Source of the DNA: Planctomycetia bacterium
GTDB taxonomy: Bacteria > Planctomycetota > MHYJ01 > WSZJ01
Length of the DNA stretch: 64,000 nt
Assembly: GCA_020849035.1 (NCBI GenBank)
Contig: JADLHC010000114.1
Location: 4,923-68,922 of the forward strand
Reading direction: 5' to 3'
Numbering within the stretch: the stretch's first letter is position 1; the number at the start of each line of letters is the position of its first letter. A program made the position numbers and the translations under genes. The notes under the pieces were generated by a model that saw nothing but the letters and a program-made list of their open reading frames with translations, was not told the DNA's origin and ran no database searches. This document shows positions 3,980 to 62,571 of the stretch, in pieces.

Positions 3980-4089
3980 CGCGAATCTCCGGTCGTCTCG
4001 GGAACGGGCGCTCTCATGGCGTGCGCGGATTCTATACGGCTCTCGGCCGGGCAGGGTTCATTCCTTGCGCGGCGCGAACTCGCGCCGGC

Positions 4090-4880: not shown

Positions 4881-4882
4881 GA

Positions 4883-11668: not shown

Positions 11669-11775
11669 GGTCCCTCCGAAGGGGGGGAGTCTAGCGGGGA
11701 GTGCAAGGCTATGGAATGGCGGAAGTTGTGAGATCAACGGAGAGGGGTGCGCGGATGTTTGGCTGGCGGGGAAAC

Positions 11776-11852
11776 CGGCAGGGGATGGGGCGGGCCCGAT
11801 CCCCAGCCCAGGCCCTCCCCACACCCTTTCCGCCCTTCCCCATCCCCTGCCG
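11776..11852. repeat. Perfect 15-nt inverted repeat CGGCAGGGGATGGGG / CCCCATCCCCTGCCG with 47-nt loop
   Basis: Read directly (arms 11776-11790 and 11838-11852). Begins 3 nt after the GNAT stop codon on the minus strand. Related element at 21427-21584. Confidence 0.85.
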
Positions 11853-11854
11853 TT

Positions 11855-14392: not shown

Positions 14393-14453
14393 GAAGGCCG
14401 GTTGGCGCTGGCGGAAGAGGGTTGAGCAACGTGTTGCGGGCGAGTGGGACGGA

Positions 14454-39717: not shown

Positions 39718-42700
39718 ATGCCCCTCCTGCTCGCAGCCGTCTTCATGGCCAGCGGCGCCGCCGCGCTCGTTTACGAAGTCGCGTGGGTGCGGATGCTGGC
39801 GGCCACGCTCGGGGCGTCGTCGTACACGATCGGCACGGCGCTGGCCGCCTACATGGCGGGGCTGGCGATCGGGGCGCGCTGGATCGGCGCGCGGGCGGAC
39901 CGGGACGCGCGGCCGCTGAGGACGTACGCGAAGCTGGAGCTGGGGATTGCGGCGGCGGCGGCGCTGGTTCCGCTGGCGTTCCTGGCGATGCCGGCGCTGA
40001 ACCGCGCGGCGTACGGGGCGCTGGAAGGGCACCTCTGGGCGCTGACGGCGGTGCGCTGCGCGCTGGCGTTCGCGGTGCTGCTCGTGCCGACGGCCCTGAT
40101 GGGCGCGACCTTCCCCGCGATGGCGTCGGCGGCCGCCGCGGAGGGACACCGCGGCTGGCGCGTCGGCCTCGTCTACGGCGCCAACACCCTCGGCGCCGTC
40201 GGCGGCGTCCTCGCGGCCGGGTTCTGGCTCATCGGCACCTACGGCCTCCGCATGACGACCTGGATCGCGGTCGGCGTCAACGTCGCCGCAGCTCTCGCCG
40301 CCTTGGCCCTCGCCGCCCGCCAGAAGCCCCTCGTCCTCGTCCCCGAGGCCGGTGTTCCCGGCGTCTCCGAGGACGAAGCCCCCGCCCCCGAACGCCGCCT
40401 CGCCCTCGCCGCCGCCGCCACCTGCGGCTTCGTCTCCCTCGGCTTCGAAGTCCTCTGGACCCGCATGTTCGCCGTCCTCTTCGCCAGCATCACCTACTCC
40501 TTCGCCATGATGCTCGCCGTCTTCCTCCTCGGCCTCGCCCTCGGCGCGCCCCTCGCCGGGCGGATTTCGGATGCGGTGAAGCGCGCGCGGCTGGAGTTCG
40601 CGGGGGCGCTCCAGCTGCTGGTCGCGGTGGCGGCGCTCGCGGCCTACATGGTCTTCCCGTACCTGAAGACCCAGACCGGCACGACCTCGCTCGCGTTCGG
40701 CGGCCCGTCGTGGATGGTCTACCTCAGGAGCCTCGCGTTCGACGCCGCCTCCGTCATGCTCCTCCCCGCCTTCCTCATGGGCTGCATCCTCCCCGTCGCC
40801 GCGCGGATCCTCGCCCAGGGCCCCGCGCAGGGCATGGCCTCCCGCCTCGGCCGCGTCTACGCCGTCAACACGCTCGGCGCCATGGCCGGCTCCCTCGTCA
40901 CCGGCTTCGTCCTCATCCCCGGCCTCCGCAACTTCGCCCACGTCTCCATCCTCCTGGCCCTCGTCTCCGCCCTCGCCGGCGCCGCCCTCCTCTTCCGCGG
41001 CGGAAACTGGGCCCCCCTCAACCGCTGGCTCGTCACGGGCGTCGCCGCCATCGCCATGGCCCTCACCGTCTGGGCCGGCCCGTTCCGCGAAAACGTCCTC
41101 CTCGCCAAGGCGGGGCTGGCGAAGCCGGGGATCACGCGGCTGTGGTACGAGGAAGGGCCGTCCCTGACCGTCGCCGTGACCGAGGAGGAAGGAACGCGCG
41201 ACCGGACGATGTGGACGGACGCGTTCAAGGTGGCGGGAACGGGCGACACGTACGAGTACATGCGGATGATCGCGCACCTCCCGATGCTCCTGAACCCGGA
41301 CGCGAAGTCCGCGTGCGTGGTCGGCCTCGGCACCGGGACGACGGCCGGCGCCCTCGCGCTCTGGCCCCTCGAGTCGCTGGACATCGTCGAGCTCTGCCCC
41401 GAGGTCTCGCGCGCCACGCCGTACTTCAAGCGCGCCAACCGCGGCCTCATGGACCGCGTCGGCCGCGACCCGCGCCTGAGGCTCGTCTTCGACGACGGCA
41501 AGGCCTACCTCCGCTCGACGCGCCGCTCCTACGACGTCGTCGTCGCCGAGCCGCTCAACCCGCACATGTCCGGCGCCTCCGCCCTGTACTCGAGGGAGTT
41601 CTACGAGGCCGCGCGCGGCCGCCTCAAGCCCGGCGGCGTCGTCACCCAGTGGATCCCGATCCACGGCGTCAAGCCCGAGGACTTCCGCTCCCTCTTCCGC
41701 ACCTTCACCACCGTCTTCCCCGAAACCGTCGTCTGGTACTTCAAGGAGGCCGTGCTCCTCACAGGGCACGAAGGGAAGTTCGTGCTGAAGTACGCGCAGT
41801 TCAAGGCGGCGCTCGACCGGCCCCAGACCCAGGCGGAGCTCATCCCGCTGGGCCTCGAGGAGGTCTACACCCTCCTCGGCTGCTTCGTCGCCGGCCCGCG
41901 CGCCTCGTCCAACTACGCCCGCTACGCCCCCGTCATCACCGACGACCTCCCCACCATCGAGTACTTCAAACCCGGCCAGCCCGTCGCCTTCGCCGAGCGC
42001 GAGAACCTCGACGGCCTCGCCCAGCACCGCGAGCAGATCCTCCCCTACGTCACCTTCGAAGGCACCACGAAGTGGCAATCCAACTACTTCACCATCGTCG
42101 CCACCAACCACTTCGTCGCCCGCGGCCTCTTCGTCGAGGCCCGCAAGCTCGAGATGGACGCCGAGCGCGCCCGCGCCGCCGGCGACATGCGGGCGGCCCA
42201 GTCGCTGTATGCGCAGGCGCTCGACAAGCTCAAGGCGGCCGCGAACGCCGCGCCGGAGGACCGCTACGTGAAGCGGCACATGCTGCGCTACGAGAAGTCG
42301 CTGAAGCCGGACGACAAGCTGACGCCGGAGAAGGCGGCGGAGATCTTGAAGTGGTCGAAGGGGACGGTCGAGGAGAAGGTGCGGGCGTGCGCGCTGATGG
42401 AGCACTACGCGGACTGGCAGGGGACGTCGGTGGTGATCCCGCTCCTGACGGACCCCGACCCGCAGGTGCGCTACGCGGCGGTCAAGGCGCTCGGGCCGAT
42501 GGGCTACAACGAGGCGACGACGCGCCGGGACAAGCCGGAGAGCGACATCGCGGAACTGCTCCGGCAGCAGCTCGAGCGCAGCCGCGAGACGAAGGAGGTC
42601 CTGCTCCAGGCCATCGAATCGCTCAAGTTGATCGGCCCCAAGGGCGCCTCCGGCCTGCTGACGGTGTTCCCGCTCAAGAAGCAGGCCGGCTGCGACGACG

Positions 42701-43335
42701 CGGAGGTGCGCGCCGCCGCCGTCGTCGCCCTCCGCGACATCGGCTCCGTCGAGGCGCTCGGCTACCTGTTCCTCGTCCTGGACGACACCGACAAGGGCGT
42801 CCGCGGCGAGGCGGTCGTCTCGCTCGCGAATTCCGGCTACCCATGGGTCGTCCCGGCGCTGCTCGAGGCCCTCAAGGACCCCTTCCCCCCCATCGCGAAG
42901 GCCGCCGCCGAGGGAATGCGCCAGATCACGAAGCTCGGGAAGGAGTGGTCCGAGTCGGCCACGGCCGAGGTCCGCGGCCGCTGCGCGCTCGAGTGGGAGC
43001 AGTGGTACGACGCCTGGCGCCGCCAGCGCGACTGGGCCACACGCTGCGGCGCCATGTCCGTCTCCGAGCTCGAGGCCACCATCGACGCCCTCATCCTCCA
43101 GCGCTCCGAGGTCGAGCAGACCGCGTGGGAGAAGCTCAGCGCCCACTTCGCGACCTTCCGCGACACCCAGGCGACCCCCGAGCCGACCGTCGAGGCCCTG
43201 AGCCGCCCCGCCGACGGCTTTCTCAAGGCCGTCGTCGACAACCCGAAGCTCTGGATGGCCGCCGTCGTCCTGGAGCAGAAGTCCGGCCTCATGCGCGGCA
43301 TCATCCCCCCCGACCGCATGCAGTCCCTGAAATGA
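39718..43335 (+). CDS. Fused polytopic membrane (MFS-like) / spermidine synthase-like / HEAT-repeat protein (1205 aa)
   Basis: ORF 39718..43335. N-terminal ~480 aa with many TM helices (SGAAALVYEVAWVRML). PABS-type methyltransferase fold (VVGLGTGTTAG...DVVVAEP). C-terminal HEAT/PBS-lyase-like repeats (DPDPQVRYAAVKALG, DAEVRAAAVVALRDIG, DKGVRGEAVVSLA). Confidence 0.88.
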   Translation: MPLLLAAVFMASGAAALVYEVAWVRMLAATLGASSYTIGTALAAYMAGLAIGARWIGARADRDARPLRTYAKLELGIAAAAALVPLAFLAMPALNRAAYGALEGHLWALTAVRCALAFAVLLVPTALMGATFPAMASAAAAEGHRGWRVGLVYGANTLGAVGGVLAAGFWLIGTYGLRMTTWIAVGVNVAAALAALALAARQKPLVLVPEAGVPGVSEDEAPAPERRLALAAAATCGFVSLGFEVLWTRMFAVLFASITYSFAMMLAVFLLGLALGAPLAGRISDAVKRARLEFAGALQLLVAVAALAAYMVFPYLKTQTGTTSLAFGGPSWMVYLRSLAFDAASVMLLPAFLMGCILPVAARILAQGPAQGMASRLGRVYAVNTLGAMAGSLVTGFVLIPGLRNFAHVSILLALVSALAGAALLFRGGNWAPLNRWLVTGVAAIAMALTVWAGPFRENVLLAKAGLAKPGITRLWYEEGPSLTVAVTEEEGTRDRTMWTDAFKVAGTGDTYEYMRMIAHLPMLLNPDAKSACVVGLGTGTTAGALALWPLESLDIVELCPEVSRATPYFKRANRGLMDRVGRDPRLRLVFDDGKAYLRSTRRSYDVVVAEPLNPHMSGASALYSREFYEAARGRLKPGGVVTQWIPIHGVKPEDFRSLFRTFTTVFPETVVWYFKEAVLLTGHEGKFVLKYAQFKAALDRPQTQAELIPLGLEEVYTLLGCFVAGPRASSNYARYAPVITDDLPTIEYFKPGQPVAFAERENLDGLAQHREQILPYVTFEGTTKWQSNYFTIVATNHFVARGLFVEARKLEMDAERARAAGDMRAAQSLYAQALDKLKAAANAAPEDRYVKRHMLRYEKSLKPDDKLTPEKAAEILKWSKGTVEEKVRACALMEHYADWQGTSVVIPLLTDPDPQVRYAAVKALGPMGYNEATTRRDKPESDIAELLRQQLERSRETKEVLLQAIESLKLIGPKGASGLLTVFPLKKQAGCDDAEVRAAAVVALRDIGSVEALGYLFLVLDDTDKGVRGEAVVSLANSGYPWVVPALLEALKDPFPPIAKAAAEGMRQITKLGKEWSESATAEVRGRCALEWEQWYDAWRRQRDWATRCGAMSVSELEATIDALILQRSEVEQTAWEKLSAHFATFRDTQATPEPTVEALSRPADGFLKAVVDNPKLWMAAVVLEQKSGLMRGIIPPDRMQSLK

Positions 43336-49309: not shown

Positions 49310-49433
49310 GATTTGAGCGCGTGGAAGGGGCGTGCGGGCCGGGCGGAGCCGGCGCGGACTCCTCACCCCATACGGCCGCCATCAGGCGGGCCGGCGCAGC
49401 CTGGCCCGCCCGCCCCTTCCACGCGCTCAAATC
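49310..49433. repeat. 33-nt near-perfect inverted repeat with ~57-nt loop between convergent genes
   Basis: GATTTGAGCGCGTGGAAGGGGCGTGCGGGCCGG (49310-49342) pairs with CCTGGCCCGCCCGCCCCTTCCACGCGCTCAAATC (49400-49433). The right arm contains the radical SAM stop codon (49427-49429). Confidence 0.85.
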
Positions 49434-50737
49434 GGCCGGCTCGACACCCCGTCAAACGTCCTCAGCGTCCGCCTCTCGTCGATCCCCTCGTAGAAGTCCT
49501 CCCACAGCTGCAGGAATCCGCCCAGCAGCTCGTCCTTCGTCATCCCCTTCGGCTCGAATACCACGTTTCCCGTGTTCCACTGCTCGTAGTTGCGGTGCAG
49601 CAGGCGCCCTTCGTCCTCGCACACCTTCCCGAACGGCGTCCCGGGGAACGGCGTCTCGATGTAGAACTCGGCGAGGTCGATGCGGGCGTCGCGGCAGAAG
49701 CGGATGATGCGCTTGAAGACGCCGGCGTCCTGCCCGTCGGTGCCGACGCCGAAGGATCCGAAGAAGTGGATGCCGGCGTCCTCGTTCATGCGGACGAGGT
49801 CGATGCCGGCCTGCCACTCGGAGGGCGTGCAGTCGGCGCTGAGGAGGCGGCGTGAGAGCCGGTCGAAACCGAACACGGTGTACATCGAGCTCGTCCCGCC
49901 CTCGGCGAGCTTCCGGTAGAACTCGGGGTCGGGGAACATCATCATCGTCGAGGCGAGGAAGATGCTCAGCCCGCGGCCCTTCGTCCGCTCCATCAGGTCG
50001 AGCAGGTACTTCTGGATGCGCCGCTTGTTCGGGAGCATCACGGTGTCGTCGATGATGTAGAACTGCTTGAACGGCATGCTCTCGATGTCCTCGATCACCT
50101 TGTCGATCGGCCGGTAGCGGATGTCGAGGCCTTCCTTGAGCGGGATCGGGCAGCCCGTGCACTGCACCGGGCAGCCGCGCGTCACCAGCACGAGGTGCGC
50201 GCTCCAGTTGTAGTCCTTGCCGTCGAAGATGTCGCGGCGCGGGATCGGGAGCTGCGCCAGGTCGTACTCCCCCTTCGGCCGGTACATCCGCTTCAGCGCC
50301 CCCGTCCGCACGTCGTCCAGGATTTCGCCCCAGACCGGCTCGACCTCGCCGACGCACACGGCGTCCGCGTGCTCGAGCGCCTCCTGCGGCCGGCAACTCG
50401 GGTGGATCCCGCCCATGATGACCTTCGTGCCGCGCCTGCGGTACTCGTCGGCGATCTCGTAGGCGCGCGTCGCCTGGGGTGTGAAGAAGCTGATCGCGAC
50501 GAGGTCGGTTTTCTCGTCGAAATCAATCGGCTTCCCGATGTTGTCGTCGGTGAGGCTGAGCTCGACGTCCGGGGGCGTGAGCGCCGCGATGATCGGCAGC
50601 CCGAGCGGAGGCGGCATCGTGTAGTTGCCGACCTCGTACTTCTGGATGAGCGGCTTGAGCCGGTCGTGCCCGTCGAGGAACTTGCGGAAGCGCGGGTAGA
50701 CGAGCCGGAGCTTGAGGTCGCGCGAAGTCATGGTCAC
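49427..50737 (-). CDS. B12-binding-domain radical SAM enzyme, function unknown
   Basis: ORF 49427..50737. N-terminal cobalamin-binding-like domain (DLVAISFFTPQATRAYEIADEYRRRGTKVIMGGIH). Cluster motif GCPVQCTGC (CxxxCxxC). Confidence 0.85.
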   Translation of the reverse strand: MTMTSRDLKLRLVYPRFRKFLDGHDRLKPLIQKYEVGNYTMPPPLGLPIIAALTPPDVELSLTDDNIGKPIDFDEKTDLVAISFFTPQATRAYEIADEYRRRGTKVIMGGIHPSCRPQEALEHADAVCVGEVEPVWGEILDDVRTGALKRMYRPKGEYDLAQLPIPRRDIFDGKDYNWSAHLVLVTRGCPVQCTGCPIPLKEGLDIRYRPIDKVIEDIESMPFKQFYIIDDTVMLPNKRRIQKYLLDLMERTKGRGLSIFLASTMMMFPDPEFYRKLAEGGTSSMYTVFGFDRLSRRLLSADCTPSEWQAGIDLVRMNEDAGIHFFGSFGVGTDGQDAGVFKRIIRFCRDARIDLAEFYIETPFPGTPFGKVCEDEGRLLHRNYEQWNTGNVVFEPKGMTKDELLGGFLQLWEDFYEGIDERRTLRTFDGVSSRPI

Positions 50738-51127
50738 CGCCCGGGAGACGCGGGGATCGGAGTCGGGGCGGGACGCGACCGCCGACCCCCATCGAACGGG
50801 CGCGCCGGTTAAGGATACCGCAAGGGGCGGCGTATGCGTGAGGAGAGAGGGGGGCGAAATCCGGCGCGAACTGCTGCCGGCTTCAACGGACCTTCAGGTC
50901 GGAAATTCAGCCACCCAGTTGGGGAAAGTCCACAGGTCCCGCGCCGAGTTTCTCACTGATGGCCCTCCCACCGCCTCCCTTCCGAGAGAAACACCCGTCG
51001 CGACCCTGCCACCCGTTCGGGCCCGCTTTTCGCTTTCCATGAGGCGGGGAAGCGCACCGAACCGGGCTCCCTCACTGCGGCGGTTTCGGCAGATTTCGGA
51101 CCATCAGGTAGGGAATCGGAGGGCCGG

Positions 51128-51541
51128 ATGCTCTCGGAAACCTCGGAACACGTCCTGCGCGCGCTCCACTGGCTGGCCACACGGCCCGCCGGTACCGCCG
51201 CAACCGCCGAGGACATCGCCGCCGGCGCCCGCGTCCCACGCCAGTACATGAGCAAGATCCTCCGCCGCCTCTCACGCACGAAAGTCCTCGAAGCCCGCCG
51301 CGGCGTCGGCGGCGGCTACCGCCTCGCACGCCCCACCGACCAGATCCGCCTCAGCGACATCGTCGGCCCCTTCGAACGCCCTCACCCCGACGACCTCTGC
51401 ATCTTCGGCGGCGGCCGCCCCTGCGGCGATAACGCCGCCTGCTCCCTCCACCAGCGCTGGGGCGCTATCCGCGATTCCCTCTTCCGCTTCCTCCATGACA
51501 CCTCGCTGGCCGACATGATCCGCGGCGGAGGCGCGGCCTGA
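51128..51541 (+). CDS. Rrf2-family (IscR/NsrR-like) transcriptional regulator
   Basis: ORF 51128..51541 behind GGAGGG. wHTH ([22 protein letters not shown]), GGGYRLAR, ligand set C-x7-C-x5-C-x2-H ([18 protein letters not shown]). Confidence 0.88.
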
Positions 51542-51623
51542 ACGACGGCCGGCGTCCCGCCGCACGCCGCAAACACAGACAACCGGACAGCTCGACCCCT
51601 TCCAGGACCTTGGGAGAACCGAA

Positions 51624-54600
51624 ATGAGCCAGATCACACGGAGAACATTCCTGAAGGACGTCTCGGCCGCGGGCTTCGGCGCCCTCGCGCTCTCCGCCCT
51701 CGACAGCTGGGGCGCGGACGCCTTCCCCAACCCGCTCGAGAAGTACCCGAACCGCGACTGGGAGAAGACCTACCGCGACCTCTGGAAGTACGACTCGGTC
51801 TTCACGTTCACCTGCGCGCCGAACGACACGCACAACTGCATCCTCAACGCCTACGTGCGCAACGGCGTCGTCACGCGCATCGGGCCGAGCATGAAGTACG
51901 GGCTCGCCGAGGACGCCGACGGCAAGAAGATCTCCTCCCACCGCTGGGACCCGCGCGTGTGCCAGAAGGGCCTGGCGCTGACGCGGCGGTTCTACGGCGA
52001 CCGGCGCGTCCGGCACTGCATGGTGCGCGAGGGGTGGAAGAAGTGGGTCGAGGCGGGGTTTCCGCGGGGCGAGGACGGGCTCGCGCCGCGCGAGTTCTTC
52101 AACCGCGGCCGCGACAAGTGGGTCCGGCAGACGCACGAGGAGACGGCGGCGCTGTACGCGAAGGCGCTGGTGAACATCGCGACGACGTACAGCGGCGAGA
52201 AGGGCGCCGCGCTGCTTGAGAAGCAGCACTACTACCCCGAGACGATCGCGGCGATGAAGGGGGCCGGGGTCCAGACGATGAAGTTCCGCGGCGGCATGCC
52301 GCTTCTCGGCGTGACGCGCATCTTCGGGATGTACCGGCTCGCCAACAGCATGGCGCTGCTGGACTCGAAGGTCCGCGGGGTGGACGCGGAGAACGCGCTG
52401 GGGGCGCGCGGATTCGACAACTACTCGTGGCACACGGACCTGCCGCCGGGGCACCCGATGGTGACGGGCCAGCAGACGGTCGAGTGGGACCTGCACGGGG
52501 TGGAGCACTCGAAGACGGTGGTGGTGTGGGGCATGAACTGGATCTCGACGAAGATGCCGGACGCGCACTGGCTGACGGAGGCGCGGGCGAAGGGGACGAA
52601 GGTGATCGTGATCGCGTGCGAGTACTCCTCGACGTCGTCGAAGGCGGACGAGGCGCTGGTGGTGAGGCCCGGGATGACGGGCGCGCTGGCGACGGGATTC
52701 GCGCACGTGATCATGCGGGACAAGCTGTACGACGCGGACTACGTGAAGAAATTCACGGACCTGCCGCTGCTCGTGCGGATGGACACGCTGAAGATGCTGA
52801 GGGCGGCGGACGTGTTCGGCGGCGAGCCGGCGGCGCTCTCGAACTACGTGACGGTGCTCAAGGCGGGCGAGAAGGCGCCGCCCCCGGGCGCGCATAAGAC
52901 GCAGATCGTGACCGAGGAGATGCGGAAGGAGTGGGGCGACTACGTCTGGTGGGACGCGAAGTCGAACGCACCGCAGGCGATCAACCGCGACCAGTGCGGC
53001 AAGAACTCGCCGATCGCGGAGCCGCAGCTGAGCGGCGCGGTCGAGGTGACGCTCAAGGACGGCTCGAAGGTCCGGTGCCGGACGGTCTACGACGTCACCT
53101 GGGAGTACGTCGCGCACTTCGACCCGAAGACGACCGAGGAGCTCACCTGGGCGCCCGCGGCCGCCGTCGAGAGCATCGCGAAGCACATCGCCTCGCAGCC
53201 GGGAACGACGCTCTTCGCCATCGGCATGGGCCCCAACCAGTTCTTCAACTCGGACAACAAGGACCGGTCGCTCTTCCTCCTCGCCGCCCTGACCGGCAAC
53301 ACGGGGCGGATCGGCGGCAACGTCGGCTCGTACGCGGGGAACTACCGGACCGCGCTGTTCAACGGTTCGCCGCAGTACATCAACGAGAACCCGTTCGACC
53401 TGGAGCTCGACCCGGCGAAGCCGGCGCGGCCGAGGCAGTACTGGAAGGCGGAGTCGGCGCACTACTGGAACCACGAGGATCATCCCCTGAAGATGGGCAA
53501 GGAGATGATCACGGGGAGCACGCACATGCCGACGCCGACGAAGACGCTCACGTTCTCGAACGCGAACTCGATCCTGGGAAACGTGAAGTGGCACTACAAC
53601 GTGGTGAACAACGTGCTGCCGAGGATGGAGCTGATCTCGGTGAGCGAGTGGTGGTGGACGGCGTCGTGCGAGTGGGCGGACGTGGTGTGGGCGGCGGACG
53701 CGTGGTTCGAGGCGAAGTTCCCGGACATGACGGCCTCGGTCACGAACCCGTTCCTGTGCGTGTTCCCGAGGACGCCGCTGGAGCGGAGTTTCGAGACCCG
53801 GGGCGACCACGAGATCCTGATGCTGATCGGCCAGGCGCTCGCGAAGGAGACGGGCGACGAGCGCTTCGCCCAGATGTGGAAGTTCATCGCGGAGGGGACG
53901 TCGGAGCCGTACCTCCAGCGGATCCTGAACGCGTCGTCGTGCACGAAGGGGTACAGGATCGCGGAGCTGGAGGAGAAGGCGAAGCAGGGGATCCCGGCGC
54001 TGATGATGGGGCGGACGTACCCGAAGGCGGTGGGATACGAGCAGGTGGAGGATTCGAAGCCCTGGTGGACGAAGACGGGGCGGATGGAGTTCTACCGGGA
54101 GGAGGACGAGTTCATCGCGGCGGGCGAGAACGTGGCGGTTCACCGGGAGCCGATCGACTCGACGTTCTACGAGCCGAACGTGATCGTGGCGCCGAAGCAC
54201 GAGGCGATCAAGCCGAAGGGTCCGGAGGCGTACGGGCTGGACCCGAAGGACCTGTCCTGCGAGGTGCGGCAGGGGCGGAACGTGGTGAAGACGTGGGAGG
54301 AGACGAAGGCGACGCAGCACCCGCTGATGAAGGACGGGTACAAGTTCATCTTCCACACGCCGAAGTACCGCCACGGTTCGCACACGACGCCGATCGACAC
54401 GGACATCAACGCGATGCTGTTCGGGCCGTTCGGGGACATCTACCGGACGGACAAGCGGATGCCGTGGACGACGGAGGGCTACGTGGACATCAACCCGGCC
54501 GACGCGAAGTCGCTGGGCGTGGAGGACGGCGACTACGTGTGGGTCGACGCGGACCCGGAGGACCGGCCGTTCCGGGGCTTCCAGAAGGACAAGGACAACT

Positions 54601-55085
54601 ACAAGGTGGCGCGGCTGATTTGCCGGGCGCGCTACTACCCGGGCACGCCGAAGGGCGTGACGCGGATGTGGTTCAACATGTACGCGGCGACGCCGGGATC
54701 GGTGGAGGGGCACACGACGCGCCCCGACGGGCTCGCGCGCAACCCGCGGACGAACTACCAGGCGATGTTCCGGAGCGGCTCGCACCAGTCCGCCACGCGC
54801 GGCTGGCTCAAGCCGACGCACATGACCGACTCGCTCGTGCGCAAGGACATGTTCGGGCAGACGATCAACAAGGGCTTCATGCCCGACGTCCACTGCCCCG
54901 TCGGCGCGCCGCGCGAGTCCTTCGTGAAGATCTCGAAGGCGGAGCCCGGCGGCCCGGAGGGCAAGGGGCTCTGGCGCCCCGCGGCGCTCGGCTTCCGGCC
55001 GAAATACGAGAACGCGGCTCTGAAGAACTACCTCGCGGGCGGCTACATCAAGGGCCAGGGCGGCAACGGTAAGGAGAAACGGTAA
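51624..55085 (+). CDS. Tat-exported molybdopterin oxidoreductase alpha subunit, type II DMSO reductase family (NarG/NxrA-like)
   Basis: ORF 51624..55085. Twin-arginine signal [20 protein letters not shown]0 motif CAPNDTHNC...C. SWHTDLPP aligns with NarG WYCDLPP (Mo-ligand Asp). [19 protein letters not shown] aligns with NarG PDAHFFTEVRYKGTK. 1153 aa. Confidence 0.9.
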
Positions 55086-56215
55086 TGGCCAAGGTCTACA
55101 ACTGGCAGCTCGGGCGCGAGATGACCTACTGGTACCCCGAGGTGCGTCCGCAGAAGCAGTTCGCCGGCATCTTCGACGTGAACAAGTGCATCGCCTGCCA
55201 GACCTGCACGCTGGCCTGCAAGACGACGTGGACCAGCGGCAAGGGGCAGGAGTACATGCTCTGGAACAGCGTCGAGACCAAGCCGTACGGGTACTACCCG
55301 CTCGGCTGGGACGTGAAGCTCCTCGACCTGCTCGGTGCGCAGAGCTTCGCCGAGGACGGCAAGTACGCAGGCAAGACGATCTTCGAGTCCGCCCCCGCGG
55401 GCGAGCGCGTCCAGGGCTGGCGCCCGACGCAGCGCGACTACGCCTACCCCAACGTGGGCGAAGACGACTGCGCGGGCGGCGTGGACAAGGGCGCCCACCT
55501 GACCCTTCCCCACATGAACTGGTTCTTCTACCTCGCCCGCACGTGCTGCCACTGCACCTACCCGGGCTGCCTCGCCTCCTGCCCGCGCGGCTCGATCTAC
55601 AAGAGGCCGGAAGACGGCATCGTCCTCGTGGACCAGAGCCGGTGCCGCGGCTACCAGGAGTGCGTGAAAGGCTGCCCCTACAAGCGCACCTTCTTCAACC
55701 CGATGACGGGGACGACGGAGAAGTGCGTCGGGTGCCTCCCGAAGCACGAAGCGGGGCTCGCGCCGCAGTGCTTCCAGAACTGCATCGGGAAGATCCGGCT
55801 CGCCGGGCACATCTCGAAGCCGGACAAGATGCGCGAGGACAACCCGATGGACTTCCTCGTGCACGTCAAGAAGGTCGCCCTGCCGCTCTTCCCGCAGTTC
55901 GGGACGGAGCCGAACATGTTCTACGTCCCGCCGATCCACGCGCCTGCGGAGTTCCTCCGGCAGATTTTCGGCCCGGGCGTGGAGGCGGCGCAGAAGACGT
56001 ACTTCAACGCGCACAAGGACATGGACCTGGCGGGCCTGCTGACGCTGTTCGGGAGCACGGAGCAGATCATCGACAGGTTCAAGCGGGAGAAGGAGACGAT
56101 GATCGGCTGGAACGAGAAGGGGGAGGAGATCATCCGGGTTCCGATCACGGAGCCGACGTACATCCGCGAGGCGCTGGCGTCGGCGCGCGGGGTGCTTTCG
56201 ACGAACGTGCCGTAA
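55085..56215 (+). CDS. Iron-sulfur beta subunit (NarH/NxrB-like, four-cluster ferredoxin)
   Basis: ORF 55085..56215 (TAATG overlap). [42 protein letters not shown]...CFQNC. The N-terminus [13 protein letters not shown] resembles NxrB-type sequences as I recall them. Confidence 0.9.
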
Positions 56216-56274
56216 GGAAGGCGGACCTGGTGACGGCCGGAGACGAAGGACAACACAGGATCGGAGGACGAGCG

Positions 56275-57159
56275 ATGACCCGGAAGAATGCGATTCGCCC
56301 CGCGGCGCTGGCGCTGGGGGCGTTCCTTGCGGTGGCGGCGGGCTGCGGCAAGAAGGAACCGCCGAAGCCGGCGGCGCCTGCGGCGTTCACGGCGGTGCAG
56401 GCGGCGACGCTGCCTGCGGCGCCGGACGACGCGGCGTGGGGCTCGGCATCGGAGTTCACGGTGGCGATGCTCAAGCAGGACCTGGTGGACCCGCGGAAAC
56501 TGACGGCGGGGGTAGAGGAGATCAAGGTGAAGGCGATCACGGACGGGAAGATGATCGCGTACCGGATCGAGTGGGAGGACGGATCGAAGCACGACTCGAA
56601 GGCGCCGGCGGAGTTCCACGACGCGTGCGCTGTGCAGATGCCGGCGACGTGGTCGGCGGAGCCGCCGTCCGCGCAGATGGGGCAGCCGGGGCAGCCGGTG
56701 ATCATCACCTACTGGGCGTCCTCGATGCAGGCGATCGTGGACGGCCGCCCGCACGACCTCAAGCAGTACTATCCGAACGCGCAGATCGACCACTATCCGT
56801 TCCAGGCTCCGGTCCTCGACAAGGATCCTGCGAAGAAGAAGGAAATGGAGAACCTGTACGCGCCTGCGCACGCGCTGGGGAACGACGTGGCGGCGGCGCC
56901 GACGAAGGCGGTGCAGGACCTGACGGCGGAGGGGCCGGGAACGCTGCGGCCTGCGTCCTCGACGAACGCGAACGGCCGGGGCGTGCGAACGGGGAACGGC
57001 TGGGCCGTCGTGATCGTGCGGCCGCTTCCGGCCGGCCTTGCGCCCGGGTCGCCCGCGGTCGTGGCCTTCGCGGTGTGGAACGGCGCGGGCAGCGACGTGG
57101 GCTCGCGCAAGGTGAGGTCTGAGTGGGTTCCCGTCACGATGCCGGGAGGTGCGAAATGA
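56275..57159 (+). CDS. Gamma subunit, haem b-binding EB_dh (ethylbenzene dehydrogenase gamma/NxrC-like) domain, lipoprotein signal
   Basis: ATG 56275 (GGAGGA 6 nt upstream) in ORF 55186..57159. Lipobox VAAGC. Candidate Met (CAVQMPATW) and Lys (VGSRKVRSEW) haem ligands. Confidence 0.75.
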   Translation: MTRKNAIRPAALALGAFLAVAAGCGKKEPPKPAAPAAFTAVQAATLPAAPDDAAWGSASEFTVAMLKQDLVDPRKLTAGVEEIKVKAITDGKMIAYRIEWEDGSKHDSKAPAEFHDACAVQMPATWSAEPPSAQMGQPGQPVIITYWASSMQAIVDGRPHDLKQYYPNAQIDHYPFQAPVLDKDPAKKKEMENLYAPAHALGNDVAAAPTKAVQDLTAEGPGTLRPASSTNANGRGVRTGNGWAVVIVRPLPAGLAPGSPAVVAFAVWNGAGSDVGSRKVRSEWVPVTMPGGAK

Positions 57160-57812
57160 GCGCGAATCCGGCGGCGGCGGACGGCTTCACGGCGGAAACG
57201 CGGGACGCGCTCACGAAGGCGGCGGACCTGCGGCTGATCGGGCTGCTGTTCGAACGCCCGTCGGAGTCGAGGCGCCGCCACGTGGCGGCGCTCGGGGCGG
57301 AGTGCGCGGACGCCGGGCTGCGTGAACTGGCGATGCTGATGACGGACGTCGACGAGGGATCCTACCAGTCGGTCTTCGGCAGCGGCGGCCCCGTGTCGCC
57401 GCGCCAGGCGGCCTACATCGGCCGCAGGGACCCCGCACGCGCCATGGCGGAGCTCTCCGAACTGTACGGAGCCTTCGGCTTCACACCGTCCCCAGGCGAA
57501 CCGCTGGATCATGTGGCGACGGAAGCGGGGTTCGCGGCGTTCCTGTACATGAAGGAGGCCTACGCCGTGTCGCAGGGCAACACCGAGGCGGCCGAGATCA
57601 CCGCCGCGGCGCGGAAGACGTTCGTAGAGGACCACCTCCGCCTGCTCGCCAACGGCCTGCTGCGGCGCCTGGGCGACGCGCCCGAGGCTCTCCAGAAGCT
57701 CGCGGCGGCGCTCGTGGACAGGGTCGGAACGTTGGCGGAGGAGGAGGATCTGGACACGCTGGAGCCGGAAGAAGAGATGTCCTGCGGCCTCCCGCCCGAC
57801 CAGCCTTCCTAG
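57156..57812 (+). CDS. Delta subunit, TorD/NarJ/DmsD-family maturation chaperone
   Basis: ATG 57156 overlaps the gamma stop (ATGA) behind GGGAGG. Helical protein with LRLIGLLFERP...YQSVFG...PLDHVATEAGFAAFL pattern. Confidence 0.7.
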   Translation: MSANPAAADGFTAETRDALTKAADLRLIGLLFERPSESRRRHVAALGAECADAGLRELAMLMTDVDEGSYQSVFGSGGPVSPRQAAYIGRRDPARAMAELSELYGAFGFTPSPGEPLDHVATEAGFAAFLYMKEAYAVSQGNTEAAEITAAARKTFVEDHLRLLANGLLRRLGDAPEALQKLAAALVDRVGTLAEEEDLDTLEPEEEMSCGLPPDQPS

Positions 57813-57836
57813 GCCATCGACCGGACAGTGCATCCC

Positions 57837-57870
57837 GCGAGGCGGCCGCAAGGCCGCCTCGCTCGTTTTC
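57837..57870. terminator. Rho-independent-type terminator between convergent operons
   Basis: GCGAGGCGGCC-GCAA-GGCCGCCTCGC (11-bp perfect stem, GNRA-like loop) followed by TCGTTTTC. Confidence 0.8.
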
Positions 57871-57878
57871 GGACCGCG

Positions 57879-58880
57879 CTAGGCCTCATACCGGAAGATC
57901 GAGTCGCCGACGCGGATGCGGTCGCCGGGGTTGAGCACCGTCGGCTCCGTGATGCGCGTGTCGTTCACGAACGTCCCGTTGCGGCTCTCGAGGTCGGTGA
58001 CGAAGTGGTGCCGCAGCTGCGGGTCGTAATCGACCTTGGCGTGCTCGCGGCTGGCGCGGTTGTCGTCGATCCGGAACGTGCACCCCGTCTGCCGGCCGAT
58101 GATGCCCGGGCCCGCGAGCGGGCAGACGCGCCCCTTGGGCTCCCCCGTTTCGAGGATCAGCCGCGCGGAAATGCGCCGCGTCGTGCCCTCCCCCGCGAAC
58201 GGAGAGCCGGGCGCCGTCGTCGGCCCGCGCGGGATCGCCGGGTTCGACGCCTCGACCGGCGTGTCCGCAGGGTGCGGGCTGGCGACGGTCGCCTCGGCCC
58301 TGGTGTCCTCGGGTCCCGCGGCCAGGTCGGGCGGCACGTCGAGCTGCCGCGCCATCTCGTCCACTTCCTGCAGCCGCTTCGTGTCGTACGGCACCGTCGG
58401 TTCCGCCGCGCGGCGGGCCGTGGCCCCGGCCTTCGCGGCCGCGCCGGGCGCCGCGGGATGAGCGCCGCCCGACTCGTAGGCCTTCATCAGCTCCTGGGAC
58501 CGCTCCGTGGTGAGGATTTCCGCCTCGACCATGATCTCCGTCAGCCGCCGCGGAATCGCCCGCTGCGCCGCAAACTCGTACTTCTGAGTGTCGATGCAGA
58601 TCCCGACTTCCTCTTCGCTCGCCATCCCGCGCTCCACGGCCAGCGCCCCGATCCGCCGCTCCTCCTCCAGCAGGTCCGTGTACTCCGCGGCCAGATGGAC
58701 CTTGTCCAGCTGCTCCTGCGTGAGCACCGACTCGCTCTGCGCGATCTCGAACAGCGACAGGCCCGCCCCGGCACGGCCGACTTCCTTCTGGCGCGCCTTG
58801 AGTTCCCCGATCTGGTCGGGGGTCAGGAAGAGCATTTTGCGCGCGAGTTTTTCGAACCTGTCGTCGGGAGGGGAGGACAT
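57879..58880 (-). CDS. FHA-domain protein
   Basis: ORF 57879..59072 trimmed to Met65 (ATG 58880). C-terminal FHA (IIGRQTGCTFRIDDNRASREHAKV...ESRNGTFVNDTRI...GDRIRVGDSIFRY). Confidence 0.8.
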   Translation of the reverse strand: MSSPPDDRFEKLARKMLFLTPDQIGELKARQKEVGRAGAGLSLFEIAQSESVLTQEQLDKVHLAAEYTDLLEEERRIGALAVERGMASEEEVGICIDTQKYEFAAQRAIPRRLTEIMVEAEILTTERSQELMKAYESGGAHPAAPGAAAKAGATARRAAEPTVPYDTKRLQEVDEMARQLDVPPDLAAGPEDTRAEATVASPHPADTPVEASNPAIPRGPTTAPGSPFAGEGTTRRISARLILETGEPKGRVCPLAGPGIIGRQTGCTFRIDDNRASREHAKVDYDPQLRHHFVTDLESRNGTFVNDTRITEPTVLNPGDRIRVGDSIFRYEA

Positions 58881-59089
58881 GGACGAGTGGTCTCCGAAGG
58901 CCTGAGCGGCGGATTCTAGCAAGGGCTGCGCGGAGCGGAAGCGGGAAACGGGTCGGCGTCGGCCCGCGCAGGCCGCACACAACCCCATGTCGCCACACAT
59001 GTTATGACTCACTCTGAATTCGCGCGAATTCTCCGGATTCCTGCAGCAGAATCCCGCCGCAGTGTCATTCATGGTCAGCGGGGGAACCG

Positions 59090-59611
59090 ATGAGCCGGAC
59101 CGACACCGCCCTGCTGGCGCTCAGGCGTTCAGGGGCGCCGGAGGGGTTCGAGGAAATCGTGCGGCGCTATGCCGACGCGCTGTTCCGGACCTGCGCGCGC
59201 CGGTTGCGTGACCGCCAGCTTGCGGAGGACGCGGTGCAGGAGACGTTCCTGAGGGCCTGGAGGGGAAGCGCGACGGTCGCGCCGCCGGAGGTGGCGGGGT
59301 GGCTGTTCGGAATCGCGCGGCACGTCTGCCAGGAGTCCGCCCGGCGGCGCCGGCGCGCCGCCGAGGGCGCTGCGCCCCTCGACGAGGAACGGACGCCGGC
59401 GGCGGCGGAGCCCGCTGCGGCCCTGGATCTCGGGATTGACGCCCTGGACGACTTCGAGCAGGCGCTCCTGCACCTCCGGCACGGCGAGGGGCTGACCTGC
59501 CGGGAGATTGCGGCGAAGCTGTCGAAGCCGGTCGGCACGGTGACGTCGGCGCTGTCGCGCGCCTACGCACGGCTGCGGAGCCGCCTCGCGGCGGCGGGGA
59601 GGGCCGAATGA
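59090..59611 (+). CDS. ECF-type RNA polymerase sigma factor
   Basis: ORF 59090..59611. Region 2 (AEDAVQETFLRAWR) and region 4 HTH (LTCREIAAKLSKPVGTVTSALSRAYARLR). Confidence 0.9.
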   Translation: MSRTDTALLALRRSGAPEGFEEIVRRYADALFRTCARRLRDRQLAEDAVQETFLRAWRGSATVAPPEVAGWLFGIARHVCQESARRRRRAAEGAAPLDEERTPAAAEPAAALDLGIDALDDFEQALLHLRHGEGLTCREIAAKLSKPVGTVTSALSRAYARLRSRLAAAGRAE

Positions 59612-62571
59612 GCTGCCGCGATTTCGAGAACGACTTCGAGCTGTACGTGCAGGGCGACCTGGAGGAGGGACGCGCGACGGCGATCCGCGCCCACCTGGCG
59701 GGGTGCCCGGCGTGCGAGGAGCGGCGCCGGGCGGCGGAGCGGCTGGTCGCCGACCTGAACGCATCGCTGGCGACGTGGGCGCCGCCGGCCGGATTCGCCG
59801 CGGCGCAGGCGTCGCGGCGCCCGGATGCCGCCGGGGGACGGCGGCCCGGGCTGCGCGCGGCCCTCCTGCTGGCGGCCGCCGCGCTGGTCGCCGTCACGGT
59901 CGCCGTGGCCCGGAAGTTCCCCTCCCCCGTCGGCGCTCCCCCGGTGCTGGAGTCCGCCTCCGTCGTCCCCTCCTCCGGCGCGAAGTTCGCCGTCCTCTCG
60001 CCGCGCCGCGTCCGGCTCGACGCCGGCACGCTCGCCTGCTCCGTCCGGCCCTCCCGCGAACCCTTCTCCGTCGAAACCCCGGCGGGCGTCGCGACCGCCC
60101 TGGGAACGCAGTTCTACATTTCCGTCCAACCTGTCGAGGATCCGTCCATGAACGCCAAACGCCTGGCGACGGCCGTCGTCGTCGCGACGGGCACCGTCCA
60201 GCTGGTCAACGGGTTCGGCTCGGCCGCCGCAGGGCGCGGCGAGCGCGTCTACGCCGAGGAAACGTCCGCCCCGACCAGGCAGGTCGCCGACCTGCAGGCG
60301 CGGTTCGGCGCAGCCTGGAAGCCCGTCGACTCGCGCCAGAAGCCCTCGATCCCCGCGTACACCCTTCCCCTGTCCCCCGGGACGCTGTCGAACGCCGCCC
60401 GGTTCGCCGCGCAACTGGGGCTGGACCCGAAGGACCCGCGCCTGCTCGCCAACGGGTTCGTGGTGATGCCGATGCCTCCGCTCCGGGACGAGCACGGCGG
60501 GGTGGTGAAGAAGGACGACCTCCCGGGCGCCTACAAGGGACTGCGGGAGGCCGGGATCCCCGTCTTCGTCACGTCGGACACGCTGCTGCACCTCTTCCAC
60601 GTCCAGTTCGACGAGGCGCTGAAGGACCTCGAGGAGCGCGAGTTCCTGCCGGACGTGACGGCGCTCGCGGAGATGCTGGAGCGCCGGCTCGGCGCGCAGG
60701 CCGCGGCGGCGAAGGACCCCGTGTCGCGCGAGGGGCTCCGCAAGGCGTGGACCTTCGCGGCAGTGGGGCTCGCCGCCCTCCGCCCGGATTTCGCACCGGC
60801 CGAGCCGATCCGCGCCGAGGTGGAGAGGGTCGCGGGACTGATGAACCGTCACGAGGGGTTCTGGCCGGACCCCGGCTCGGCGCACGAGCAGTGGAGCCTC
60901 TTCCGGTACGCCGAGGATTTCTCCCAGTACGTCCCGCGCGGGCACTACACGCGGAGCGAGGGGCTGAAGCGGTACTTCGTCGCGATGATGTGGTTCGGTC
61001 GGATGACGTTCCTGCTGAAGGGAGGGGATCCGCACGGGCCGACGGAGGGGGAGCCGTTCCTGGTGTCGGCGGAGGAGGCGGCGGCGCAGACGGTGGCGGC
61101 GGCGGCGATGACGCGGCTGCTCGCGACGGAGACGCTGGCGGACGGGCGCCGCGCGGCGGAGGTCTGGGAGAGGATCTACGCGGTGACGGCGTACTTTGCG
61201 GGGCTCTCGGACGACCTCGGGCTGCCCCATTACGCCGCGGCGCTGGGCCAGGTGCTGAAGGCGACGGACGACGTGGCGGCGCTGGCCGACCCCGGGCGGA
61301 TGGCGGCGTTCCGGGCCGAGCTGGCGAAGTTCCGGGGGCCCGCGATCTACGGCGGGACGGGCGGGCAGACGGCCGGCGGGGAGAGCCCGGACAACCTCGA
61401 GACCGCGCTGGCGAAGACCGCCGGGTTCCGGCTCATGGGCCAGCGCTTCGTCCCGGACTCCTACATCCTCGGCCGCCTGGTGTTCCCCGCGGTCGGGGGA
61501 GCGTCGGGAAGGCGGACCGACATGTTCACGTGCGTGGAGACCGCGTTCGGCCCGGTGCGCGGGTTCCCGCGCGGTCTGGACGTCCTCGCGGTGATGGGTT
61601 CGGCGCGGGCCAGGGAGATCCTGGCGGCGCTCGGGGACGACGCCTATGGGCGCAATGCCTCGGGGACCGACGTAACCTACGAAGCGGCGCTGGCCGGGCT
61701 GCGCGCGGAGTTCGCAGGCCTGTCGGCGGCGGACTGGAACCGGAACCTGTACTGGTCGTGGCTGTACGCGCTTCAGGCCCTGCTCGAACCGCGCGCGGCC
61801 GGGTACCCGACGTTCATGACGACGCAGGCCTGGCAGGACAAGTCGGTGACGACGGCGCTGGCGTCCTGGGCGCAGTTGCGGCACGACACGATCCTGTACG
61901 CGAAGCAGAGCTACACGGAGGCGAAGGGGGAGGACGCGCCGCCGAAGCCGGTCCCGGGGTACGTGGAGCCGTGCGTGGAGTTCTACGGGAGGATGCTGGC
62001 GACGGTCCGGATGATGAAGGCGGGCCTGGGAGAGATGAAGGCGCTGACCGCGCAGGCGGCCGAGCGGCTGGACGGGCTGGAGAAAATCCTGGTCCGGCTG
62101 CACGCGATTGCCGAAGCGGAGCTCGCCGACCGGGAGCTGTCCGAGGAGGACGCGGCGTTCGTCCGCAACTTCGCCGACGAGCTCTCGGGAATCCAGGTGA
62201 GGTACCCGGAGCTCGAAGCCGCGTACAAGAAGGCCGTCGATGCGGGTGACTGGGACCGGGCGCGCGAGATCCGCGAGCAGCTCGATCCTGCGCGCTCGAT
62301 GAGCACGGCGCTCGTTGCCGACGTGCACACGGACCAGAACTCCGGGAAGGTGCTCGAGGAGGCGACCGGGCACCTGGACCTGGCCGTCGTATGCGTCCGG
62401 CTTCCGGACGGGACCCTGACGCTCGCCGCGGGCCCGGTGCTCTCCTACTACGAGTTCAAGCAGCCGATGAAGGACCGCCTGACCGACGAGGCGTGGAGGG
62501 AGATGCTCGCGAAGGGGCGCGCTCCTGCGCGGCCGGAGTGGACTTCGAGCTACGTGAACGACGCCCGATAG
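59608..62571 (+). CDS. Anti-sigma factor (zf-HC2) / TM / FecR-like / DUF3160 fusion protein (987 aa)
   Basis: ORF 59608..62571, ATGA overlap with the sigma gene. HLAGCPAC (H-x3-C-x2-C), TM LLLAAAALVAVTVAVA, FecR-like VRLDAGTLACSV...TALGTQFYISV. About 700 aa follow, resembling DUF3160 (PVFVTSDTLLHLFHVQFDEALK). Confidence 0.85.
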   Translation: MSCRDFENDFELYVQGDLEEGRATAIRAHLAGCPACEERRRAAERLVADLNASLATWAPPAGFAAAQASRRPDAAGGRRPGLRAALLLAAAALVAVTVAVARKFPSPVGAPPVLESASVVPSSGAKFAVLSPRRVRLDAGTLACSVRPSREPFSVETPAGVATALGTQFYISVQPVEDPSMNAKRLATAVVVATGTVQLVNGFGSAAAGRGERVYAEETSAPTRQVADLQARFGAAWKPVDSRQKPSIPAYTLPLSPGTLSNAARFAAQLGLDPKDPRLLANGFVVMPMPPLRDEHGGVVKKDDLPGAYKGLREAGIPVFVTSDTLLHLFHVQFDEALKDLEEREFLPDVTALAEMLERRLGAQAAAAKDPVSREGLRKAWTFAAVGLAALRPDFAPAEPIRAEVERVAGLMNRHEGFWPDPGSAHEQWSLFRYAEDFSQYVPRGHYTRSEGLKRYFVAMMWFGRMTFLLKGGDPHGPTEGEPFLVSAEEAAAQTVAAAAMTRLLATETLADGRRAAEVWERIYAVTAYFAGLSDDLGLPHYAAALGQVLKATDDVAALADPGRMAAFRAELAKFRGPAIYGGTGGQTAGGESPDNLETALAKTAGFRLMGQRFVPDSYILGRLVFPAVGGASGRRTDMFTCVETAFGPVRGFPRGLDVLAVMGSARAREILAALGDDAYGRNASGTDVTYEAALAGLRAEFAGLSAADWNRNLYWSWLYALQALLEPRAAGYPTFMTTQAWQDKSVTTALASWAQLRHDTILYAKQSYTEAKGEDAPPKPVPGYVEPCVEFYGRMLATVRMMKAGLGEMKALTAQAAERLDGLEKILVRLHAIAEAELADRELSEEDAAFVRNFADELSGIQVRYPELEAAYKKAVDAGDWDRAREIREQLDPARSMSTALVADVHTDQNSGKVLEEATGHLDLAVVCVRLPDGTLTLAAGPVLSYYEFKQPMKDRLTDEAWREMLAKGRAPARPEWTSSYVNDAR

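Follow-up and report, generated by a model that had tools for sequence, protein, structure and literature searches.

Among the described systems closest to the locus studied here, the nitrite oxidoreductase (NXR-ABC) of the anammox bacterium Kuenenia stuttgartiensis is known from a solved structure (7B04), and an FS0 cluster held by three Cys and one Asp, together with a substrate Asn at the position where EbdA has Ile, are features of NXR (PMC8387239). Kuenenia NxrA shares ~60% identity with its counterparts in nitrite oxidisers and ~40% with the proteins of Nitrotoga and Hydrogenobaculum (Chicano et al., 2021; PMC8387239), and a sister clade contains Nitrotoga NXR and periplasmic nitrate reductases (pNAR), including the characterised Hydrogenobacter thermophilus enzyme (Kitzinger, 2018; PMC6050957). 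NXR-like enzymes in metagenome-assembled genomes (MAGs) of non-anammox Planctomycetota have earlier been reported as "putative NXR/NAR" (Suarez, 2023; Poghosyan, 2020), while the cultured, nitrate-respiring planctomycete Thermogutta terrifontis carries the gene order TorD-NarI-NarH-NarG followed by three genes of a bc complex (PMC5673643). In haloarchaea, a nitrate reductase (Nar) exported through the twin-arginine translocation (Tat) pathway shares its cluster with genes for a Rieske protein and a cytochrome b, and its activity is antimycin-sensitive (PMC4683180). Here we analyse an operon for an enzyme of this kind in a 64-kb stretch of DNA from a Planctomycetia bacterium (assembly GCA_020849035.1, contig JADLHC010000114.1, positions 4,923 to 68,922), the whole of which, at ~70% G+C, is called the window below.

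The operon is confirmed to be real and intact, with its features at the positions given in Table 1. [quoted passage not shown] What is new here is the universality of an electron-transfer module next to this enzyme in its relatives, the clean loss of that module in the window, and a lipoprotein gamma subunit that is conserved across the family. We favour, with confidence a little better than even, the reading that this is a reversible nitrate/nitrite enzyme that serves as a periplasmic respiratory nitrate reductase and now runs on unlinked electron carriers. We infer its substrate, direction, electron partner and regulatory signal from the protein sequences and the gene context.

The related loci compared with the window, labelled with L-numbers, are the best 80 of 360 encoding loci in a scan with one genome per species; all 80 are MAGs, the majority from Acidobacteriota and Planctomycetota and some from Binatia, Zixibacteria and further groups. 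In all, 81 loci were examined for the gene content described next. In the relatives, alpha is always directly preceded by a four-gene module, placed between the regulator and alpha, that encodes a GltD-like flavoprotein, a Rieske protein, a cytochrome b and a heptahaem cytochrome c. Presence was counted only in testable loci, where the upstream sequence is long enough, and is complete there (heptahaem cytochrome c 75/75, cytochrome b 67/67, Rieske 67/67, GltD-like 66/66). The GltD-like protein (641 aa) has a Fer4_20 domain, a pyridine-nucleotide oxidoreductase domain and two ferredoxin-type clusters, the cytochrome b is of the fused b6/subunit-IV type, and the cytochrome c (561 aa) has an N-terminal membrane helix and seven CxxCH motifs. 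Indeed, independent gene calls on two further contigs return the same eight-gene core behind different regulators. In the closest relative (L049, alpha 87% identical), nine genes run from Rrf2 to delta with ATGA overlaps, and the module occupies 2324-8004.

Gene order in the window matches that of L049 and L062 to either side of the gap, through a radical-SAM gene and the Rrf2 gene on the left and through alpha to delta, an FHA gene, a sigma factor and a DUF3160 protein on the right. In blastn alignments, window 51097-51528 matches L049 1882-2314 and window 51613-58921 matches L049 7992-15219; L049 2315-7991 (5.68 kb, the whole module) is absent from the window, where ~84 bp of unrelated sequence stands instead. 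Rieske, cytochrome b and GltD-like genes were found by tblastn nowhere in the window, which is the only locus lacking the module among the 67-76 that are testable, depending on the gene. Since nucleotide identity to the relatives is similar left and right of the junction, which has no flanking repeat, we consider a genuine deletion in this lineage more likely than a chimeric join. The first-pass annotation had left the electron route open for want of a membrane subunit or cytochrome c partner. For the window this still stands, as the operon encodes neither an integral membrane subunit nor a cytochrome c; for the family, the Rieske/cytochrome b/heptahaem cytochrome c module of the relatives supplies the answer.

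Domains were called with Pfam and NCBIfam (TIGR) profiles, and matches to solved structures were scored in bits. Kuenenia NXR-ABC is by far the best solved-structure match of all three subunits, each of which it resembles from end to end, with 842 bits for alpha (PcrA 169, EbdA 132, NarG 132), 365 bits for beta (PcrB 217, EbdB 202, NarH 170) and 65 bits for gamma (EbdC 33). [quoted passage not shown] Alpha does not belong with the cytoplasmic NarGHI enzymes, for it reaches 158 against a cut-off of 1084 with TIGR01580, carries a Tat leader and has no NarI beside it.

Within this family, alpha shares 39-40% identity with Kuenenia NxrA (39% by BLASTP, for 1171 columns of alignment), a sequence rebuilt from printed alignments whose landmarks C67, N70, D71, C75, C115 and D275 check out, and it is 39-42% identical to 12 members of the Kuenenia lineage that are themselves 66-85% identical to Kuenenia NxrA. 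More than 120 relatives from many phyla share 71-87% identity with the window alpha, and one match, labelled 'MAG: Planctomycetia bacterium', is 100% identical. A Kuenenia NxrA query retrieves a second, equally broad set with 65-85% identity to Kuenenia and with Nitrospinota, NC10 and Brocadiia labels. The two sets share ~40% mutual identity and form two sister lineages in a bootstrapped neighbour-joining (NJ) tree of alpha, each with 100% support, and 96% support unites the window's clade with four more distant 50%-identity representatives (Gaiellaceae, SAR202 and two unnamed). The representatives of alpha relatives clustered at 50% identity are well spread, with labels that include Gaiellaceae, SAR202, Tectimicrobiota, Halorussus and Thermincola, and alpha falls with the NXR/pNAR group, away from the shorter representatives. 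In this tree, Nitrospinota, NC10 and anammox-like sequences stand in for the Nitrospira/Nitrospina/anammox lineage, with no named Nitrospira among them; the comparison set has no Hydrogenobacter, Methanoperedens, Nitrospira or T. terrifontis sequence and holds Nitrotoga as an N-terminal fragment only. That fragment of Nitrotoga NxrA (P0433/P0453), which spans just 134 residues, shares 50-58% identity with members of the window's clade, against 40-47% with those of the Kuenenia lineage (54% with the window alpha and 41% with Kuenenia). Alpha thus lies outside the anammox/Nitrospinota/NC10 lineage of NXR and in its sister lineage, and the enzyme, with limited support, falls on the Nitrotoga side and probably groups with Nitrotoga and the periplasmic nitrate reductases. 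The earlier placement on an NxrAB-like branch is therefore right in part: NXR is the closest solved relative, and the NXR-type FS0 and Asn are present, but alpha is not a member of the Nitrospira/Nitrospina/anammox lineage.

Comparison with individual systems sharpens this position. The window enzyme shares with Kuenenia NXR (PMC8387239) the alpha-beta-gamma architecture, an alpha of nearly the same length (1153 and 1148 aa) with a Tat leader, the FS0 of three Cys and one Asp, the substrate Asn, the Mo-ligand Asp, a four-cluster beta and an EB_dh gamma with Met/Lys-ligated haem b. It differs in the separate lineage and modest identity of its alpha, in a shorter beta (376 against 410 aa) without the Kuenenia insertions, in a gamma that is a lipoprotein whereas that of Kuenenia is soluble, and in the absence of NXR-T or any other gene of the 15-gene anammox cluster. 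The NXR of Candidatus Nitrotoga fabula (PMC6050957) is likewise periplasmic, is encoded in a four-gene locus and has a gamma without a transmembrane helix; unlike what is found here, that gamma is reported with a Sec signal and not a lipobox, and the organism is a chemolithoautotrophic nitrite oxidiser. The Nar of T. terrifontis R1 (THTE_1506-1512; Elcheninov et al., 2017, PMC5673643), from the same phylum, has the order chaperone, gamma, beta, alpha, and its alpha, from a nitrate respirer, was assigned to a deep branch within the Nar-DMSO cluster. Its three bc-complex genes adjoin alpha as they do in the window's relatives, whereas the window has none; the paper assumed a cytoplasmic Nar, and the likeness is one of description only. 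In a Thermoguttaceae MAG (L008), alpha is 72% identical to that of the window.

The haloarchaeal NarGH with NarB/NarC (Rieske/cytochrome b) resembles the window's relatives in its Tat-exported catalytic subunit, its EB_dh-like haem b protein (Orf7) and its Rieske/cytochrome b cluster, the last of which the window lacks. Haloferax mediterranei NarG is 28% identical to alpha, over the N-terminal half only, and is thus no close kin. E. coli NarGHI (1Q16) shares the Asp-ligated molybdenum bis(pyranopterin guanine dinucleotide) cofactor (Mo-bisPGD), FS0 and the four-cluster beta, but shows ~25% identity, faces the cytoplasm without a Tat leader, has His and not Asp at FS0, and is held by the dihaem anchor NarI and not by an EB_dh protein. 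Kartal and colleagues are said to have described, in 2013, anammox Rieske/cytochrome b complexes with an NAD(P) oxidoreductase subunit. The make-up of the module recalls these complexes; this is a lead only, and it concerns the relatives and not the window.

The cofactor ligands agree with the family assignment. In alpha, the FS0 motif C64-x2-N67-D68-x3-C72 together with C113 provides the NXR-type set of three Cys and one Asp, each of these five residues is invariant in 81/81 sequences, and the substrate Asn, which like this FS0 motif is typical of NXR and Nar enzymes, does not vary either. D272, within SWHTDLPP, aligns with the Mo-ligand D275 of Kuenenia NxrA and is also invariant (81/81). 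This verifies the Mo-ligand Asp that had been proposed, along with the 1153-aa length and the RRTFLK Tat signal, whose twin-arginine motif is conserved among the relatives. Beta, described earlier as a four-cluster protein, indeed has 15 cluster cysteines, invariant in 75/75 and matching three [4Fe-4S] and one [3Fe-4S] cluster. In gamma, the positions of the haem b ligands of KsNxrC (Met155 and Lys305) and of EbdC are taken by Met135 and Lys279, and both are invariant in 70/70 sequences. The first-pass annotation had taken gamma for an EB_dh-type haem b protein with a lipobox in place of a membrane anchor, and this holds: PF09459 is matched above its gathering score, the signal peptide ends in LAVAAG-C, and no other hydrophobic segment or transmembrane helix is found in the protein. 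The signal peptide ends in Cys in essentially every relative (55/71 by the strict pattern, the remainder by eye), and lipid anchoring of gamma is therefore a trait of the family and not a peculiarity of the window. Missing catalytic residues, which the annotation had held would speak against its assignment, were not encountered, as the cofactor ligands are intact and invariant.

None of the operon genes carries a frameshift or stop codon, and all are intact. The mean identity of alpha to 74 outgroup members is 70.5%, against 68.4-71.1% for the five closest relatives, and alpha is thus not accelerated. Beta, by contrast, is 69.2% identical to 69 outgroup members against 72.5-73.7% for its sisters, which makes it ~4 points more divergent, and it carries 12 substitutions at sites that are at least 97% invariant, the highest number among 75 sequences (median 1, 90th percentile 3). 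These substitutions are mostly conservative; one of them, N155C, adds a Cys beside a cluster ligand. Gamma has two changes at invariant sites, M280V right after Lys279 and P133A two residues before Met135. The ratio of nonsynonymous to synonymous substitution rates (dN/dS) is 0.23-0.43 in comparisons with the window and 0.06-0.21 between relatives, all well below 1; when the window is compared with L049 and L062, all three of alpha, beta and gamma stay <0.35, and gamma reaches 0.43 against L001, values that are comparative only because G+C at third codon positions is ~97%. Either a loosened constraint on the subunits that carry electrons or their adaptation to a new partner would fit this pattern, which does not suit decay of the catalytic subunit.

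The fold, the cofactors and the conserved substrate Asn indicate nitrate/nitrite chemistry. Alpha, with its Asp-ligated Mo-bisPGD and FS0, would be assembled with the NarJ-like delta and exported in folded form by the Tat pathway, presumably together with beta, whereas gamma would be exported separately and anchored to lipid through its N-terminal Cys, carrying its Met/Lys-ligated haem b. Electrons would travel between the Mo site and the gamma haem via five Fe-S clusters, and a c-type cytochrome would deliver them to, or take them from, the gamma haem. A soluble periplasmic enzyme without a quinol site can obtain electrons from quinol only by way of a bc-type complex, and the operon-borne bc/cytochrome c module of the relatives implies a periplasmic respiratory nitrate reductase, in which electrons would flow from quinol through the bc complex, cytochrome c, gamma, beta and alpha to nitrate. 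With the module deleted, the window enzyme must depend on unlinked cytochromes. The Rrf2 Fe-S regulator probably couples expression to a redox or nitrogen-oxide signal. The direction of catalysis is not readable from sequence, because Kuenenia NXR catalyses both reactions (PMC8387239), and it is the genomic context that would favour reduction for the family. This context includes the module of the relatives, the bc-complex genes beside the Nar of the nitrate-respiring T. terrifontis, the antimycin-sensitive haloarchaeal Nar with its Rieske and cytochrome b genes, and the characterised Hydrogenobacter enzyme in the Nitrotoga sister clade. It also includes the homologue on a Natronococcus occultus plasmid, with a 49% identical alpha near a norB-like gene and ric, which we counted for a reductive role.

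Several points weigh against a nitrate reductase. No feature of the sequence separates nitrate-reducing from nitrite-oxidising members, and Nitrotoga, a true nitrite oxidiser, has a four-gene locus of nxrA, nxrB, nxrC and a chaperone like that of the window (PMC6050957) and appears on the window's side of the tree, a placement that rests on 134 residues. The module that argues for quinol-driven reduction is precisely what the window locus has lost, gene-model scans found no nitrate/nitrite transporter, nitrite reductase or NO reductase in the window, and T. terrifontis NarG was likened to alpha by published gene order and description, not by sequence. A first rival reading is a physiological nitrite oxidoreductase: nitrite would be oxidised in the periplasm, and the gamma haem would hand the electrons to a soluble cytochrome c, from which they would reach a terminal oxidase, so that an aerobic or microaerobic planctomycete would gain an auxiliary energy source or a means of nitrite detoxification. 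In its favour, the best-matching solved structure is that of an NXR, the Nitrotoga fragment is nearer to the window's clade than to the Kuenenia lineage and comes from an organism with the same four-gene locus and a soluble gamma, nitrite oxidation was proposed for similar enzymes of Planctomycetota MAGs (Suarez, 2023; Poghosyan, 2020), and the absence of the bc module would be in keeping with it, since electrons running forward from nitrite to oxygen require no quinol oxidase. We nevertheless judge this somewhat unlikely: every other member examined retains the quinone-linked bc module in its operon, the one cultured organism with the same gene architecture (T. terrifontis, matched by architecture and not by sequence) reduces nitrate, and the hosts are mostly heterotroph-like Acidobacteriota and Planctomycetota MAGs. 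Furthermore, Pfam scans covering ~45 of the roughly 52 gene models of the window found no oxidase and no chlorite dismutase, and neither a CO2-fixation gene nor a candidate partner cytochrome lies nearby, the only cytochrome c of the window (6363-6806) being rejected as a partner as it belongs to an FTR1/Fur iron-uptake cluster 45 kb away. In a variant of this reading, which strikes us as quite improbable, the enzyme would have been rewired to a new electron partner after the loss of the module and would now run mainly as a nitrite oxidase feeding a terminal oxidase. If this were true, the locus would be a natural halfway stage, with a periplasmic nitrate reductase driven by quinol at one end and a four-gene NXR like that of Nitrotoga at the other, it would show how a single deletion can give rise to nitrite oxidation, and the excess substitutions in beta and those beside the gamma haem ligands would be the trace of the rewiring.

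The same substitutions could instead mark an orphaned remnant on its way to decay, left without an efficient partner after the deletion and under relaxed selection. That the window is the sole testable locus without the module, that beta has changed at so many near-invariant sites and diverged by ~4 extra points, that both invariant-site changes in gamma lie next to or near haem ligands, and that dN/dS is higher in window comparisons than among relatives all speak for decay. The reading frames are nevertheless free of frameshifts and stops, the cofactor ligands are intact, alpha is not accelerated, the substitutions are mostly conservative, dN/dS is well below 1 and a ribosome-binding site is kept before alpha; the changes in beta and gamma are equally explicable as adaptation to a new partner, and we hold decay to be unlikely. 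Activity on a different substrate seems to us very improbable. The family-level matches, which comprise three NCBIfam models (TIGR03479, TIGR03478 and TIGR03477) as well as the structures of PcrAB and EbdABC, and the assignment of nitrate/nitrite to the clade by sequence comparison leave some room for it, but PcrA, EbdA and their betas score far below NXR, the substrate Asn is conserved where EbdA has Ile, alpha is much longer than PcrA and EbdA (1153 against 899-976 aa), the tree puts alpha with the NXR/pNAR group, and the Cld family is missing from the ~45 scanned gene models. Together, these considerations leave a periplasmic respiratory nitrate reductase on unlinked carriers as our preferred reading.

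Table 1. Features of the operon in the window, with positions counted from the first nucleotide of the window.
Feature	Position	Strand	Evidence
Rrf2-family Fe-S transcription regulator, first gene of the unit	51128-51541	+	PF02082 E=5e-29; TIGR00738 above cut-off
Junction or scar, ~84 bp without counterpart in relatives	51529-51612	.	blastn collinearity with L049
Alpha, 1153 aa, Tat-exported Mo-bisPGD catalytic subunit with FS0	51624-55085	+	7b04_B E=5e-252, full length; PF00384, TIGR03479
Beta, 376 aa, four Fe-S clusters	55085-56215	+	7b04_A E=5e-108; PF13247, TIGR03478
Gamma, 294 aa, lipoprotein with EB_dh haem b domain	56275-57159	+	PF09459 E=2e-19; 7b04_C E=1e-16; 2ivf_C
Delta, NarJ/TorD-type assembly chaperone	57156-57812	+	PF02613 E=1e-8; TIGR03482 below cut-off
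Intrinsic-terminator-like hairpin closing the unit	57837-57862	+	11-bp stem with 10 G-C pairs, then T run

The genes of the unit are closely spaced, with 82 bp between Rrf2 and alpha and 59 bp between beta and gamma, and the tight coupling noted in the first-pass annotation is real at both junctions, a TAATG overlap between alpha and beta and an ATGA overlap of the gamma stop with the delta start. A GGGAGA ribosome-binding site precedes the alpha ATG. Delta, which had been called TorD/NarJ-like and whose PF02613 score indeed lies above the gathering score, most likely starts at the ATG at 57156, the GTG at 57123 in a mechanical list of open reading frames being less favoured; it is conserved after gamma in relatives, and the order alpha-beta-gamma-delta is kept in the 80 related loci. 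The hairpin that closes the unit is the only terminator-like one on the + strand in 50700-58000, and neither a sigma-70-like promoter nor a convincing Rrf2-box palindrome was found upstream of the unit.

The Rrf2 protein of the window has three Cys (91, 99 and 105) and H108, so that the Cys triad is present. Among 27 homologues, C91, C105 and H108 are conserved in 26-27, against 15/27 for C99. The earlier suggestion of an IscR/NsrR-type regulator stands as far as the Rrf2 family is concerned (PF02082, TIGR00738), but a specific type is not callable, since the equivalog models for IscR, NsrR, RirA and SufR score 30-59 bits against cut-offs of 110-275. Likewise, the description of the operon as Rrf2-regulated is borne out by a real adjacency that is not universal: a Rrf2 homologue adjoins the cluster in 27/80 related loci (26 upstream and one downstream), and the other loci have other regulators. 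In L049 and L062, an ATGA overlap joins the end of the Rrf2 gene to the operon gene that follows.

Some related loci show peculiarities of their own. L068 encodes an extra 165-aa hydrophobic protein in the gap between alpha and beta (11439-11936) and a 170-aa protein between gamma and delta (13937-14449), neither with a match in NCBIfam, the sole library scanned, and similar gaps recur in other Pyrinomonadaceae/Blastocatellia loci (Acidobacteriota). L081 is Natronococcus occultus SP4 plasmid 2 (NC_019976.1:115178-118336), where the gene table has no entry for the alpha homologue, which may be a pseudogene or just missing from the list and is followed by beta and a TorD-like gene, with no gamma; the nearby norB-like gene encodes a 1088-aa haem-copper oxidase subunit I. 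The MAG labels of some carriers of the cluster (e.g., L006, L052, L075 and L059), namely Bifidobacteriaceae, Enterobacteriaceae, Bordetella, Clostridia and Heliomicrobium, look implausible and may reflect mislabelled bins.

The rest of the window encodes housekeeping and unrelated functions. Two B12-binding radical SAM proteins are encoded at 49427-50737 (-) and 21668-23329 (+); the former gene is divergent from the Rrf2 gene and is kept there in the closest relatives only (L049 and L062). Downstream of the operon, 57879-62571 holds a convergent FHA-domain protein, an extracytoplasmic function (ECF)-type sigma factor and a 987-aa fusion of anti-sigma (zf-HC2/FecR) and DUF3160 parts, collinear in L062. 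The iron-uptake cluster at 6363-9827 (-) encodes a Fur regulator, a 453-aa protein in which an Fe2+-transport domain is weakly matched, an FTR1-family permease whose N-terminal part is DUF5059-like, and a small class I cytochrome c. A 1205-aa fusion of a membrane domain resembling the major facilitator superfamily (MFS), a spermidine-synthase-like domain and HEAT repeats lies at 39718-43335 (+).

Since genome surveys and one cultured planctomycete show that this kind of enzyme is already known, the outcome for the window itself is a correctly recognised, not an unprecedented, enzyme operon. The consequences lie mainly with the family. Surveys of soil, sediment and groundwater metagenomes routinely score this clade's genes as narG or nxrA, and the direction of the nitrate/nitrite step may be misassigned for whole guilds. 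The family now gains a testable wiring of eight genes, in the order GltD-like protein, Rieske protein, cytochrome b, heptahaem cytochrome c, alpha, beta, lipoprotein gamma and delta. If the window variant is active, setting it beside relatives that have kept the bc module would reveal the contribution of that module and the direction in which the enzyme works.

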